From Candidatus Adlerbacteria bacterium (lineage in GTDB: Bacteria > Patescibacteriota > Minisyncoccia > Phycocordibacterales > SBAW01), in assembly GCA_028286685.1 (NCBI GenBank), contig JAQBRA010000002.1:1073-65072 (forward strand): a DNA stretch of 64,000 bases, written 5' to 3'. Positions within the stretch are counted from its first letter, which is position 1. Every line of letters begins with the position of its first letter. Below the pieces are notes generated by a model, which did not search any database, had not been told where the DNA came from, and worked only from the letters and a program-made list of their open reading frames with translations. Shown here in pieces: positions 6,762-60,942 of this stretch. Made by a program: the position numbers and the translations under genes.

Positions 6762-6833
6762 GGCCACGTAGCCAAGTAGAAAGGCGCGGGACTGCAAATC
6801 CTGTATGCGCGGGTGCGATTCCCGCCGTGGCCT
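6762..6833 (+). tRNA. tRNA-Cys(GCA)
   Basis: Cloverleaf with acceptor GGCCACG/CGTGGCC, anticodon loop CTGCAAA, and T-arm GGGTGCGATTCCC. Confidence 0.8.
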
Positions 6834-7008
6834 CAAGGAGAGTATTCGACGCTGGGGCCACGGAGAGAAGCATGGGATGCTTCTCGTCGGGAATCGCAAG
6901 CCGGAGCGGGCCCCATGCCTCTTGGCATGGGAGCGAGGCAGGGCCGTGCGGCACATGATCCAGTGGTATCATGTGAACGCCTGGCCGATCCGCCGTGGCC
7001 TCAAGTTT
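6834..7008 (+). repeat. tRNA-linked structured repeat element, copy 1 (ends with a 16-nt duplicate of the tRNA-Cys 3' end)
   Basis: Conserved core aagccggagc...gcgaggcagggccgtgcggc...gaacgcctgg plus two hairpins that covary against copies 2 and 3. The terminal ccgccgtggcctcaag repeats 6823-6838. Confidence 0.6.
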
Positions 7009-7989: not shown

Positions 7990-8133
7990 ATTTCGCACTA
8001 GTGGTCAGGCGTTCAACATGCGCCGTCGCACACATTGCCGCACGACCCTGCCTCGCCGTCCTGCAAGCGTAGGACATGGCTCCGGCTCGCACACAAGCAG
8101 AAAGCCTCCCGCAGGGGAGGCTTTCTGCTTGTG
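7990..8133 (-). repeat. tRNA-linked structured repeat element, copy 3 (downstream of tRNA-Lys)
   Basis: On the minus strand: a long hairpin with a GCAG loop (8092-8133), then the conserved gagccggag...cgaggcagggtcgtgcggc...gaacgcctga core. The terminal repeat of the tRNA-Lys 3' end is degenerate. Confidence 0.55.
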
Positions 8134-8206
8134 TGCGCCTACCTGGATTCGAACCAGGGACAATCTCCTTAAGAGGGAGCTGCTCTACCAACTGAGCTAT
8201 AGGCGC
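8134..8206 (-). tRNA. tRNA-Lys(CTT)
   Basis: The reverse complement reads GCGCCTATAGCTCAGTTGGTAGAGC...anticodon loop CTCTTAA...GTCCCTGGTTCGAATCCAGGTAGGCGCA. Confidence 0.8.
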
Positions 8207-50880: not shown

Positions 50881-50888
50881 GTTCTAGC

Positions 50889-50931
50889 CATAAAGTAAAA
50901 GACCTGCCGCAGGGCAGGTCTTTTACTTTAT
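50889..50931 (+). terminator. bidirectional hairpin terminator (19-bp stem, GCAG loop) between hsp20 and tRNA-Phe
   Basis: ataaagtaaaagacctgcc-gcag-ggcaggtcttttactttat. Confidence 0.65.
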
Positions 50932-50933
50932 GG

Positions 50934-51006
50934 TGCTTGGGGCCGGGCTCGAACCGGCGACATCTTCCTCTTCAGGGAAGCGCTCTACCAACTGAGCTAC
51001 CCAAGC
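50934..51006 (-). tRNA. tRNA-Phe(GAA)
   Basis: The reverse complement reads GCTTGGGTAGCTCAGTTGGTAGAGC...anticodon loop CTGAAGA...GGTTCGAGCCCGGCCCCAAGCA. Confidence 0.85.
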
Positions 51007-53712: not shown

Positions 53713-53788
53713 ACTGTGCGGAATAGAAGCTGGGACTTATATTCCTTCCCTCGCTCGCAAATAATAGCGGGCTTTATTTGTCTCACTC

Positions 53789-53961
53789 GGGTGCGGAATG
53801 GGAATCGGTCAGGCGTTCGTATAATGCCGTCGCATTATACGCCGCACGACCCTGCCTCGCTCCCGTGCCCGCTGGCACGGGGCCCGCTCCGGCTTTCGAT
53901 TCTCCACACAACCCGCCCCGCGGGTCGTTCATTCCGCACTCTTGTCACTATAGTTCCTCGG
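53789..53961 (-). repeat. tRNA-linked structured repeat element, copy 2 (ends with a 20-nt duplicate of the tRNA-Gly 3' end)
   Basis: In tRNA orientation: hairpin, then gaatcgaaagccggagc, covarying hairpin 1 (cgtgccagcgggcacg), gcgaggcagggtcgtgcggc, covarying hairpin 2 (gtataatgcgacggcattatac), gaacgcctga, and ccgattcccattccgcacc, which repeats the tRNA 3' end. Confidence 0.6.
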
Positions 53962-54032
53962 TGCGGAATGGGAGAATCGAACTCCCGCCCGTTGCTTGGG
54001 AAGCAACTGTTCTACCACTAAACCAATTCCGC
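53962..54032 (-). tRNA. tRNA-Gly(CCC)
   Basis: The reverse complement reads GCGGAATTGGTTTAGTGGTAGAAC...anticodon stem-loop GTTGC-TTCCCAA-GCAAC...GGGAGTTCGATTCTCCCATTCCGCA. Confidence 0.8.
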
Positions 54033-54045
54033 GTACGGGCCTAAT

Positions 54046-60649: not shown

Positions 60650-60942
60650 ATTTAGCGCGCGCGTCTGTAAGCCGAGTTCTGTCGTGGGCTGCAATTTATC
60701 TGGGCCCAGAGTCGCCCCTGGGCTCGAGCGGCACTCCGCAGTTGCCTGCGGCACGGCCTTGCACCCGGGTAGGGATTTTGCCGTTTCACCCGAACTAAAT
60801 CGGTTCGTCACTGTTCGCACCCCTTACGACCGCTAATATCGTACGGCAGGCGTTACCTGCTACCTTGCTACTGCAGTTGCCCGCAGTGGGAGCTCGGACT
60901 TTCCTCTCCGTCTTGCGACAGAGCTGCAACCAAACGCGCTTT
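60650..60942 (-). ncRNA. rnpB: RNase P RNA (bacterial type A, compact)
   Basis: The minus-strand transcript contains AGGAAAGUCCGAGCUCC (P4 5' strand), GGUAACGCCUGCC, GGGUGAAACGGC and ACAGAACUCGGCUUA (P4 3' strand). P1 pairs GCGCGUUUG with CAGACGCGC, and a hairpin follows. Confidence 0.75.

Follow-up and report, generated by a model that had tools for sequence, protein, structure and literature searches.

A candidate 172-nt integrative mini-element behind tRNA-Gly in an Adlerbacteria genome, and its family at Patescibacteria tRNA genes

Why does the 3' end of a tRNA-Gly(ccc) gene recur a short way behind the gene in a Candidatus Adlerbacteria contig? A first-pass annotation of this locus took the repeat for a mark of integration-type recombination at tRNA 3' ends, and argued on that ground against both a fixed non-coding RNA gene and a generic terminator. 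We followed up this reading in the window, by which we mean the whole 64-kb stretch of DNA that was analyzed, and in comparison loci from other genomes.

The duplicated end of tRNA-Gly and its antisense arm

The locus is composed of the following parts, in the order in which the minus strand is read.

53960-54032, minus strand: tRNA-Gly(ccc), the target gene (ARAGORN; Rfam RF00005 tRNA, 70.4 bits)
53960-53979, minus strand: repeat X, CGATTCTCCCATTCCGCACC, tRNA positions 56-75 and the functional tRNA 3' end (sequence coordinates)
53940-53959, minus strand: spacer S1, GAGGAACTATAGTGACAAGA, 20 nt, not present in empty sites
53930-53939, minus strand: antisense arm part 1, GTGCGGAATG, complement of tRNA positions 65-74 (sequence match)
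53906-53929, minus strand: side hairpin ACCCGC GGG GCGGGT with linkers, 24 nt, splitting the antisense arm (folds and flanks of other copies)
53895-53905, minus strand: antisense arm part 2, GGAGAATCGAA, complement of tRNA positions 54-64, the T-loop and the 3' strand of the T-stem (sequence match)
53808-53894, minus strand: structured core, 87 nt, a three-way junction (covariance-model match 53806-53894, 98.7 bits)
53790-53807, minus strand: repeat X', CGATT--CCCATTCCGCACC (sequence match; host flank resumes right behind it)
53716-53789, minus strand: unit B, an older insertion lacking a core, with the degenerate antisense-like stretch GTGCGAGCGAGGGAAGGAAT (homologous to L065 and L071)

The Gly element occupies 172 nt, from 53979 to 53808, and consists of X, the spacer, the split antisense arm and the core. 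The tRNA gene ends in ...GCACC without encoding CCA. Compared with X, the repeat X' has lost 2 nt, the CT of the 3' strand of the T-stem, leaving 18 nt aligned to 20. The 20-nt duplication described in the first-pass annotation is therefore real and its copy at 53960-53979 was placed correctly; the other copy lies at 53790-53807 and not at 53789-53808, and the string given for it held one c too many, the true difference being a deletion of 2 nt and not of 1. The similarity exceeds chance: the 13-mer CCCATTCCGCACC occurs exactly twice in the 64-kb window, against 0.09 occurrences expected from shuffled sequence, and 0 of 100 shuffles reach two. A third copy, 9 nt long (ATTCCGCAC, 53716-53724), forms the end of unit B, 3 nt from the stop codon of the HxlR gene.

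When the two arm parts are joined, all of their nucleotides (21/21) match the reverse complement of tRNA positions 54-74, a split pattern with one match in the window against 0.00 expected. This arm, the most distinctive feature of the unit, is absent from the first-pass annotation. The complementarity of X to the arm is intact at 21/21, whereas X' bears its deletion. Folded as single-stranded DNA, the 172-nt unit forms an X:arm hairpin and the core with a z-score of -7.8, and z-scores range from -5.2 to -7.8 over the three window copies (described below) and this unit. When a read-through transcript is folded thermodynamically, the tRNA loses its T-arm because its own 3' part is taken up in pairing with the arm.

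These statistics bear on one rival reading, namely that the similarity arose by chance or that the tRNA is followed by nothing more than an intrinsic terminator. Some observations would suit it, in that family copies of type A include a terminator-like hairpin and A-rich tRNA trailers yield repeats of 3-8 nt by chance. Against it stand the expectations for repeat and arm in the window, the fold z-scores, and the covariation of the core across the family; the repeat and arm statistics together with that covariation refute it, and we assign it practically no probability. On the minus strand, no GC-rich hairpin followed by a T-run was found between 53300 and 54600, and the structures there are not followed by a T-run, which bears out the earlier argument against a generic terminator. 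Spacer S1 contains neither a terminator nor a consensus promoter on this strand, where the Gly copy was likewise found to have no promoter or terminator of its own.

The first-pass annotation also raised the possibility of an alternative tRNA, built from the 5' part of the tRNA and the downstream repeat. A cloverleaf is indeed called for tRNA positions 1-55 plus X', but with a T-loop of 5 nt, and X' is truncated in many relatives; we rejected this candidate. The element itself was not called as a tRNA or pseudo-tRNA by ARAGORN or Rfam.

Empty sites and an off-target insertion

A further alternative was that the sequence behind X is simply the ancestral region downstream of tRNA-Gly. We checked this in loci fetched through FtsB homologues, seven in number and representing four sequence-distinct genomes (L066-L068 are one genome by sequence, and L069/L070 are another). 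The seven loci share the gene order LepA–FtsB–tRNA-Gly(ccc)–HxlR–LUD, and their tRNA lacks the element, so that orthologous tRNA-Gly loci without it exist and the Gly copy is an insertion polymorphism. One empty site is L069, where gene order and orientation match those of the window and the tRNA 3' end abuts the HxlR stop codon (...CCCATTCCGCAC|ATTATAA); the ATTCCGCAC copy of the window occupies the place of that tRNA 3' end. The core element is also missing in L064, whose FtsB is 89% identical, and in L065, L066-L068 and L071. Behind X', window positions 53716-53789 are homologous to the sequence directly behind the tRNA in L065 and L071. Since the host flank resumes directly after X', the insert comprises 172 nt bounded by the repeat. 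In another locus, L005, tRNA-Gly is locally rearranged, and exact orthology with the window was not obtained.

Two contigs from different samples, L077 and L085, carry a Gly-type element inside a copy of tRNA-Pro and have a native Gly(tcc) copy on the same contig. At the left junction, TAGCCCGAGTTCGATTCT|CCCATCCCGCAC, the 5' part of tRNA-Pro is joined to a Gly 3' end, behind which follow a spacer and an antisense arm, both of Gly type, and then the core; at the right junction, GAC|CGATTCTCGGCACCCCGAC, the 3' end of tRNA-Pro reappears. The chimeric junction falls within the T-loop shared by the two tRNAs, in a stretch of 13-nt identity. For this family member, which is not the window copy, the chimera indicates that X was brought by the element and that the crossover took place in the T-loop. 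By analogy, X at 53960-53979 is probably the element-borne copy, on the attL side, and X' at 53790-53807 the former 3' end of the host tRNA, displaced to the attR side, which would be decaying through its 2-nt deletion.

The same event speaks against the idea that the arms are copied from the target at each insertion, by snap-back synthesis or at a hairpin-capped break: the copy that moved from Gly to Pro kept its Gly arms. The idea is attractive since the arm ends exactly at T54, but there is at least one real event for which we reject it. A related proposal is mobility through RNA, in which a reverse transcriptase acting in trans copies the element and target-primed or snap-back synthesis makes the repeat. 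Such a route would suit an arm that complements the tRNA 3' end exactly and stops at T54, as if copied from the tRNA, as well as the variable repeat length (18 to >60 nt) and a structure on the transcribed strand; retroviral and LTR primer-binding sites likewise complement a tRNA 3' end. We nonetheless consider it quite improbable. The arm remained Gly-type in the Gly-to-Pro event and was not copied from the new target, the complementarity ends at position 74 without CCA, a chimeric junction inside 13 nt of identity fits strand exchange between DNA molecules, and no reverse transcriptase was seen near any copy. Moreover, group II introns are reported absent from Patescibacteria (PMC13011429).

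A tRNA-linked family with a covarying core

The window holds two sister copies of the Gly element.

6835-7005, plus strand: sister copy 1, downstream of tRNA-Cys at 6762-6834 (covariance model, sequence comparison)
7993-8137, minus strand: sister copy 3, type A, downstream of tRNA-Lys(ctt) at 8133-8206 (covariance model)

When the window is searched with a covariance model built on the core, exactly three copies emerge (98.7, 90.0 and 86.3 bits; next best match, 14.8 bits), in agreement with the first-pass assignment of these loci to one element family. The core also gave 102 matches in 85 sources, every true one of them in Patescibacteria. The Cys copy has the same architecture as the Gly copy: a spacer, an arm (6855-6863 and 6888-6898), a core (6899-6985) and a repeat (6986-7005). 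The Lys copy consists of a terminator-like hairpin at 8088-8137, which begins within the last 5 nt of the tRNA, and a core at 8004-8087. Like the other type A copies, in which a terminator-like hairpin lies upstream of the core, it has only a hairpin, paired at its foot with the final 5 nt of the tRNA, and no significant repeat. The earlier claim that the repeat matches the local tRNA each time accordingly holds for the Gly and Cys copies and fails for the Lys copy. At tRNA-Phe the hairpin occurs without a core. Given type A copies without a repeat and a Phe hairpin without a core, a second insertion mode or core loss must be assumed.

Across 53 tRNA-linked copies, both repeat and arm fit their own tRNA better than other tRNAs, with 0 of 500 permutations doing as well in each case. 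The repeat invariably starts at C56 and extends from 18-19 to more than 60 nt (26 nt in L001; in L026 it includes the terminator), a variability to be expected of the identity blocks of integrative elements; the arm consistently stops at T54. The side hairpin is found at the same place in most type B copies, each with its own sequence. In five type B copies (L010, L022, L028, L048 and L056) an intrinsic terminator lies in the spacer, before the arm and core, and X' is truncated or degenerate in L022, L030, L034, L048 and L056. We also observed that one arm is often truncated in family copies in which the core is intact. Units, which measure ~130-190 nt, have accreted into tandem arrays in L017, L042, L043, L051, L076, L083 and L102. 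Together with the empty sites, the host flank behind X' and the Pro/Gly chimera, the permutations support the first-pass reading of integration-type recombination at tRNA 3' ends.

Family members stand at 54 of the 111 tRNA genes of the sampled loci, about half, in a sample biased towards filled loci. Whether a given tRNA species carries an element varies between genomes, and one species may carry different element types (Ile-tat in L004 and L056; Val-tac in L007 and L017). Cores that come from different genomes and stand behind different kinds of tRNA can share up to 97% identity and yet have entirely different arms, which simple inheritance of the arm does not explain. Cores cluster neither by genome nor by tRNA kind (12/78 and 8/78), and no simple history of vertical, tRNA-specific lineages can therefore be drawn.

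The structure of the core was derived from the family alignment with RNAalifold and covariation counts, and follows the pattern AGCC-GGA-GCG[hp1]CGC-GA-GGC-AG-GGUCG-U-GCG-G[hp2, loop GACG]AA-CGC-C-UGAC(C). Its helices are paired in 97.4% of cells, compared with 31-40% when the partners are slid, and 28 of its 30 pairs show double changes; one near-invariant pair is G.U in 91 of the 93 scored sequences. The helices contain 63 G.U/U.G pairs and 13 A.C/C.A pairs. From this excess of G.U it follows that the structure is read on the tRNA-sense strand, and hence that the core acts as RNA or as single-stranded DNA. The strand-specific conservation fits a folded single-stranded DNA and is equally compatible with RNA, and conservation across many copies could equally reflect an RNA function at the level of the host. 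A second subfamily of the core exists (GCGAGCCGGGGTCGCGA...TTGTGACC).

That the 87-nt core is a new structured nucleic-acid motif is well supported. At gathering thresholds, Rfam 15 finds only tRNAs in the whole window, and at E <= 10 the three copies yield, besides tRNAs, only chance similarities of the Lys hairpin to microRNA-type families. The lack of an Rfam match excludes the known ribozymes, tmRNA, Y RNA and group I and II introns as the identity of the element. The literature searched in full text, including for the core sequence itself, contains no description of the family. The group I intron reported in Patescibacteria tRNAs sits at position 35/36 of the anticodon loop and is unrelated to the element. 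Neither of the two core patterns has a match in 2.9 million viral contigs, and we rejected a phage att arm as the identity of the element on this basis.

The viral search also weighs on another explanation, in which the element is the leftover of a larger integrated element, such as a prophage or genomic island, whose interior has been deleted, the core being remaining attachment-site arm DNA. Integrase-mediated insertion classically leaves behind a scar in the form of direct repeats of a tRNA 3' end, and unit B resembles such a scar in decay. Against this origin, the same 87-nt core recurs with compensatory changes in more than 100 copies, in units of ~130-190 nt, a larger version carrying genes was not found, and the core patterns are missing from the viral contigs; we judge this origin very improbable.

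The conserved core weakens one part of the first-pass reading, its case against a fixed non-coding RNA gene: integration is supported, but the core is conserved and covaries as a functional structured RNA or single-stranded DNA would. The element could instead be a structured RNA that serves the host within the tRNA transcription unit, a "tRNA trailer RNA". Its core would bind a protein or ligand, the insertions would be the way in which the gene family once spread, and the arms would close the RNA with a copy of the acceptor/T-stem minihelix for RNase P, RNase Z or another tRNA enzyme, or alternatively switch tRNA folding. In addition to the covariation and the structure on the transcribed strand, such a role would agree with several features of the copies. 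No terminator separates tRNA-Gly from the element; the Cys copy sits in the spacer between the co-oriented tRNA-Cys and tRNA-Leu genes (only ~10 nt in the empty site L018) and is likely transcribed if these form one unit; some tRNA species are recurrently filled (Ile-gat in 6/6, Lys-ctt in 5/5, Gln in 4/4); and G.U wobbles are kept in the closing helix of L010, L052 and L056.

A trailer RNA is harder to reconcile with the absence of the Gly copy from the closest relatives, with the five copies whose terminator precedes arm and core, and with the frequent truncation of the arm beside an intact core. An element that enters tRNA-Pro off target and builds tandem arrays is behaving selfishly. Pairing of the arm destroys the T-arm in the read-through fold, a cost and not a service, and the only "alternative tRNA" has the defective 5-nt T-loop. 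We therefore consider a host-serving trailer RNA unlikely.

A candidate insertion route and comparison with known systems

We conclude that the Gly element is probably a non-autonomous, non-coding, site-specific integrative mini-element of the Campbell type, with its crossover in the T-loop. It would bring along X as a duplicate of the 20 nt that end tRNA-Gly and enter by a reciprocal crossover in the T-loop/T-stem segment, on the 3' side of position 55, with strand exchange predicted within positions 56-63. Integration would join the tRNA body to the X of the element, leaving the gene intact, and would move the original host end, X', to the far side beside the old host flank, where it could decay. 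In a single-stranded form, X and the arm could pair into a 21-bp duplex reproducing the double-stranded tRNA gene segment 54-74, from which the side hairpin would branch off, with the three-way-junction core abutting the side of the crossover. This folded att-like hairpin and the core may, like the folded attachment sites compared below, be the cis-acting substrate of a recombinase supplied in trans, putatively of the tyrosine type and perhaps Xer-like, with the core as its recognition module. The intermediate would presumably be a circle or a hairpin; a double-stranded circle of ~170 bp would be sterically difficult. The excised allele predicted by this route has tRNA-Gly ...CCGCACC joined directly to CGAGTGAGA, and the predicted circle or tandem junction has ...GAACGCCTGAC joined to CGATTCTCCCATTCCGCACCGAGGAAC.

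The 172-nt unit contains no plausible ORF and no integrase, and so is non-autonomous at best. We searched for an enzyme that might act on it. Twenty candidate ORFs of the window compared with Pfam were housekeeping genes or had no Pfam match, with no recombinase among them, and no recombinase, transposase or reverse transcriptase could be identified for the element. XerD-like genes were found in only 6 fetched loci from ~4 independent genomes by tblastn with approximate queries, and may be ordinary neighbors. An IS200-type TnpA was not found in any locus by the same kind of search over 108 sequences. We rejected single-strand transposition of the IS200/IS605 type on account of the missing TnpA, the long repeats, the variable left flank of the copies (…TCGAA, …GTGCG, …GTGGA) and the presence of copies 1 kb apart on opposite strands in a window of uniform GC skew.

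More tentatively, the family might represent a hitherto unrecognized class of protein-less mobile units of ~130-190 nt, whose att site is a folded hairpin mimicking the T-arm and acceptor of one tRNA and whose core recruits a host recombinase; in a bolder version, the core may itself be catalytic or act as RNA, self-processing or retro-mobile. Were the folded-hairpin model true, one cis-acting scaffold would be retargeted to many sites by swapping a 20-nt hairpin, which would interest designers of recombination tools.

The Gly element belongs to a large, undescribed family of mini-elements behind tRNA genes throughout the Patescibacteria, a group of ultra-small bacteria. Members of the Candidate Phyla Radiation, with their tiny genomes, are generally portrayed as having little mobile DNA. 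Neither Rfam nor the literature searched contains the family, which stands at about half of the tRNA genes in our sample of mainly filled loci. Its members replace the 3' ends of tRNAs, accumulate in tandem, give rise to chimeric tRNAs and are associated with inversions. It thus matters for tRNA annotation, for the assembly of metagenome-derived genomes and for the evolution of essential tRNA loci in reduced genomes.

Williams is said to have distinguished, in 2002, sublocation classes of integrative elements in tRNA genes. The mini-element resembles the integrase-type members of this group (P4-like prophages, genomic islands, and ICEs/AICEs such as pSAM2) in that the tRNA is rebuilt from element DNA, the displaced host end lies beside the host flank, empty sites contain one repeat, units accrete in tandem, and off-target entry occurs into a tRNA sharing the T-loop. 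It differs in measuring only 130-190 nt, in carrying no integrase or other gene, in its internal inverted att copy and covarying three-way-junction core, and in that one core family spans dozens of tRNA specificities.

Like MITEs and CIMEs, mini-elements are short, non-coding and multi-copy, would rely on an enzyme in trans and are polymorphic for presence and absence. Unlike MITEs, they have no terminal inverted repeats or fixed short target duplication, the inverted repeat (X against the arm) being internal; no parent IS was found, and the conserved part is the internal structured core. CIMEs, which are bounded by att sites, are kilobases in size. PATEs derived from IS200/IS605 and the REP/RAYT system are similarly small, rich in hairpins, structured on one strand and often located just behind genes. 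Their insertion point is the 3' side of a fixed tetra- or pentanucleotide, they make no repeat, and they prefer the lagging-strand template, whereas the mini-element has a variable left flank, repeats of 18 to >60 nt and copies on opposite strands.

The primer-binding sites of retroviruses and LTR elements complement the terminal 18 nt at the 3' end of a tRNA, and the arm likewise is an exact complement, ~20 nt long, of the 3' end of a specific tRNA. The arm extends over positions 54-74 and leaves out CCA, a hairpin splits it, and a sense copy accompanies it in the same element; the mini-element has no LTRs or reverse transcriptase, and its arm was inherited, not recopied, in the off-target event.

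Architectural parallels are the attP(+) site of CTX-phi, recombined by XerCD (PMC3442271), and the attC sites of integrons (PMC7439510, PMC3053210). There, too, an imperfect inverted repeat on one strand folds into a mimic of the partner site, structure is conserved above sequence, and the folded sites are strand-specific with branches or extrahelical features. Single-strand integration of a circle with a site of this kind produces the integrated order X – loop – inverted X – rest – X'. The mini-element targets the T-loop and acceptor of a tRNA and not dif or attI, and has no phage genome or cassette ORF; the resemblance is one of architecture only. Should the class with hairpin att sites be real, it would be the equivalent, for tRNA targets, of the CTX-phi attP and integron attC sites, naturally "programmable" and diversified to most tRNA species in Paceibacteria.

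Layout of the tRNA-Gly copy and its empty relatives

The tRNA-Gly(ccc) gene is followed by a 172-nt element in which the tRNA's 3' end recurs. Coordinates in the list below run in tRNA orientation for the parts of the element.

Features of the tRNA-Gly copy and of the other core copies in the window
53960-54032, minus strand: tRNA-Gly(ccc)
53960-53979, minus strand: X, the final 20 nt of the tRNA (positions 56-75), the proximal repeat
53959-53940, minus strand: spacer S1, 20 nt
53939-53930, minus strand: GTGCGGAATG, antisense arm, part 1
53929-53906, minus strand: hairpin between the arm parts, 24 nt
53905-53895, minus strand: GGAGAATCGAA, antisense arm, part 2
53894-53808, minus strand: core, 87 nt, GC-rich
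53807-53790, minus strand: CGATTCCCATTCCGCACC, X', the second (distal) repeat
6899-6985, plus strand: core behind tRNA-Cys (blastn and covariance model)
8004-8087, minus strand: core behind tRNA-Lys(ctt) (blastn and covariance model)

The tRNA-Gly 3' end is thus present three times, in sense in the tRNA, in antisense in the arm and in sense again in X', and a fourth piece of 9 nt (ATTCCGCAC) lies at 53716-53724. Taken together, the two arm parts match the reverse complement of tRNA positions 54-74 at all 21 nt, a split antisense pattern with one match against 0.00 expected. The first-pass annotation had described a 20-nt duplication of the tRNA end. The repeat is real, as a 13-mer common to X and X' has two occurrences in the window where 0.09 are expected. 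X' is a copy of the final 20 nt with a deletion of 2 nt, where the annotated string showed one gap and one c too many, and the antisense arm had been overlooked.

The FtsB-like protein encoded beside tRNA-Gly in the window shows 100% identity to NCBI JWL87_71, which places the window in a Candidatus Adlerbacteria MAG. To compare host sites, we chose loci from other genomes and metagenomes (L-numbers) that encode FtsB homologues; these share with the window the gene order LepA–FtsB–tRNA-Gly(ccc)–HxlR–LUD–glutaredoxin. The core element was not found at tRNA-Gly(ccc) in L064 (FtsB 89% identical to that of the window), L065, L066-L068, L069/L070 or L071. In L069, which reads ...CCCATTCCGCAC|ATTATAA in window orientation, the tRNA ends 1-3 nt from the HxlR stop; the site adjoining this stop in the window is taken up by the distal ATTCCGCAC. 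In L065 and L071 the tRNA is followed by ~80 nt that end in ATTCCGCACC and are homologous to window 53716-53789, the sequence after X'. This core-less segment, unit B (74 nt, 53716-53789, minus strand, between X' and the HxlR stop), ends in ATTCCGCAC as a third sense copy and holds a degenerate antisense-like stretch; its plus strand holds the terminator-like hairpin of HxlR. Unit B is common to the window, L065 and L071 and is not present in L064, L067 or L069.

By the empty relatives and the flank homology of L065 and L071, the window is an empty site into which two insertions have gone in turn, both with a copy of the tRNA end as their last part; the older is unit B and the younger the 172-nt core element. 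The same two observations rule out the alternative raised in the first-pass annotation, namely that the sequence is simply what ancestrally lay downstream of tRNA-Gly. At other tRNAs, the gap from tRNA-Cys to tRNA-Leu is ~10 nt in L018 versus 178 nt in the window, where the element lies between, and tRNA-Phe is followed by a hairpin alone in the window and by hairpin plus core in the orthologous L005; the core was either gained in L005 or lost in the window. In the tRNA-Phe locus of the window (50885-51006, minus strand), the terminator hairpin behind the tRNA has a perfect stem of 21 bp that takes in the encoded CCA.

Among close relatives (window 53960-54045 compared with L064, L065, L067, L069, L071 and L072), tRNA-Gly(ccc) occurs between FtsB and HxlR in both orientations, with a leader that differs per orientation, and the unit B state is seen in both, which would imply that the tRNA cassette has been repeatedly inverted or re-inserted.

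Structure, spread and tRNA linkage of the core family

The element is real, abundant and lineage-specific. Blastn and the covariance model find exactly three core copies in the window, behind tRNA-Cys, tRNA-Lys(ctt) and tRNA-Gly, in agreement with the earlier assignment of these loci to one family. Each is far more stably folded than its shuffles (z -5.2 to -7.7), and no Rfam 15 family matches any of the three, even at E <= 10. The element was rejected as a MITE, as a member of any known RNA family, as a pseudo-tRNA and as a terminator, and no description of it was found in the literature searched. A core pattern run against 185,579 species genomes matched 63 loci, 53 of them in Patescibacteria (Adlerbacteria, Paceibacterota, Nomurabacteria, Kaiserbacteria, Parcubacteria and MAGs labelled Saccharibacteria); the remaining 10, with longer gaps and in high-GC Actinobacteria and Proteobacteria, were rejected as chance matches.

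A covariance model (R1) built from 50 cores found 102 copies in 85 sources. In their alignment, standard pairs fill 97.4% of cells, versus 31-40% with partners slid; changes on both sides occur in 28 of 30 pairs, and one G.U pair is nearly invariant. G.U/U.G combinations outnumber A.C/C.A by 63 to 13 in core pairs, and the core structure is therefore read on the strand with tRNA sense, as RNA or single-stranded DNA. The conserved junction is AGCC-GGA-GCG...CGC-GA-GGC-RG-GGUCG...UGACC; in a second subfamily GGC/GCC replaces GCC/GGC and the lower helix becomes continuous. Enlarged variants (L037 2500-2680, L047 2828-2980, L079, L080, L084) have either several extra hairpins or long inserts in place of hairpin 1 or hairpin 2, and some escape R1.

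Almost every copy has a same-strand tRNA 40-130 nt upstream of it, or else follows a further unit of a tandem array. Type B copies (the window Gly and Cys copies and others behind Ser, Asp, Gln, Glu and some Val, Ile and Leu tRNAs) consist of spacer, split antisense arm, core and a repeat that always starts at C56 of the T-loop and is 18 to >60 nt long. Type A copies (the window Lys copy and others behind Arg, Ile, Phe, Val, Leu, Lys, Ala and Met tRNAs) consist of a terminator-like hairpin that pairs at its foot with the tRNA's final 3-5 nt, followed by the core. No repeat above background was found in type A. These copies may integrate in another way, for example by inserting where the terminator hairpin has its 3' foot, or by a crossover limited to the terminal CAC. 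Family-wide, both the repeat and the antisense segment fit their own tRNA better than other tRNAs (0/500 permutations each). Cores behind different tRNAs in different genomes reach 97% identity with unrelated arms, and a single tRNA species may be empty, type A or type B, depending on the genome.

Tandem arrays hold two to four units behind one tRNA, with core subfamilies and types A and B mixed (L017 3030-3480 and 6319-6883; L042, L043, L051, L076, L083, L102); in L102 the duplication takes in the entire unit and extends as far as the first 9 nt of the core that follows. One family member (L012 2725-2870, minus strand) lies not behind a tRNA but behind the ribosomal protein gene rplL; its hairpin is formed from the final 19 nt of that coding sequence, stop codon included, and its core is followed by a degenerate repeat. 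Most of the 11 tRNA genes in the window lack an encoded CCA and have C74 (...GCAC, ...GCACC); CCA or CC is encoded in three (Phe, Ser-cga and, in part, Leu-taa).

Off-target copies and a proposed route of integration

A metagenome scan for the Gly-type arm/core junction gave 34 loci, ~28 of them true, behind tRNA-Gly(ccc/tcc/gcc), Ala, Glu and Pro and with much more diverse cores. Two independent loci, L077 and L085, have a tRNA-Pro fragment that harbours a copy whose spacer, arm and core are of Gly(tcc) type, with a native Gly(tcc) copy on the same contig. The left junction, TAGCCCGAGTTCGATTCT|CCCATCCCGCAC, fuses the Pro 5' side to the Gly 3' end, and the right junction, ...GAC|CGATTCTCGGCACCCCGAC, is the Pro 3' end; the only stretch common to the two tRNAs is GAGTTCGATTCTC. 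A reciprocal crossover in the T-loop between an X-carrying element and the wrong tRNA would produce this arrangement. The junctions of these off-target copies show that the proximal repeat and antisense arm move with the element and that the distal repeat is the displaced host end. This assignment would explain why the window arm is perfect against X but X' carries a deletion, and also the truncated or degenerate state of X' in L022, L030, L034, L048 and L056, where the cores are intact. For this event, recopying of arms from the target is ruled out by the Gly-type arm in tRNA-Pro. The first-pass proposal of integration at tRNA 3' ends is borne out by the empty sites, the host flank after X' and this Pro/Gly chimera.

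In a separate arrangement (L072/L073 1894-2129; L077, reverse strand, ~560-900; L085), a resident tRNA is split into a 5' fragment (to ~position 26-36) and a 3' fragment, and between the two stands a whole tRNA of the same kind (Gly or Pro) with inverted repeats of 14-19 nt on its flanks. It looks like a second kind of small cassette, one that would replace tRNA genes via the anticodon-loop region.

We propose that the element is a non-autonomous integrative mini-element. The element-borne unit would be X – spacer – inverted X (with side hairpin) – core, a single strand of which would fold into a 21-bp duplex equal to gene segment 54-74, and the core would lie directly beside the crossover side (DNA fold of the unit, z = -7.8). 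Once integrated, the parts stand in the order X – loop – inverted X – rest – X', as expected if a folded single-stranded circle had recombined with a double-stranded target. CTX phage is reported to recombine in this way via XerCD (PMC3442271), and integron attC sites to behave similarly (PMC7439510, PMC3053210); the proposal draws on this parallel in fold and integrated order. Hairpin and core would then be the cis-acting substrate of a putative recombinase supplied in trans.

No recombinase was found among 20 window ORFs, and XerD-like genes lie near a few copies only. These tyrosine recombinase genes (L086/L091/L092, L096, L097, L105; ~four independent genomes) are 3-7 kb from Gly-linked copies and 34-40% identical to E. 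coli XerD; their position may reflect nothing more than synteny, or it may point to the enzyme. An IS200/IS605-type mechanism is opposed by the presence of copies 1 kb apart on opposite strands under a GC skew that is uniform across the window, by the variable left flank and by the long repeats.

Transcript folding and comparison with known systems

No terminator or consensus promoter was found between tRNA-Gly and the element, which makes it probable that the element is read through from tRNA-Gly. In the thermodynamic fold of tRNA plus element, the arm pairs with the tRNA 3' part and the tRNA 5' strand with X', so that read-through would tend to misfold tRNA-Gly unless 3' processing is fast. 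Many relatives have a terminator in the spacer, which would avoid such misfolding. An alternative tRNA, suggested earlier as a check, is not supported: tRNA positions 1-55 joined to X' give a 5-nt T-loop. The window also encodes a bacterial class A RNase P RNA (60652-60942, minus strand) that is unusually reduced, at only 291 nt, and scores 104.8 bits (gathering score 100) with all 367 model positions spanned.

The closest known systems are integrase-type elements in tRNA genes, which resemble the element in repeat anatomy, tRNA restoration, accretion and off-target chimeras; unlike them, the 172-nt element encodes no integrase. With the folded att sites that CTX phage and integrons use, it shares a likeness of architecture only.
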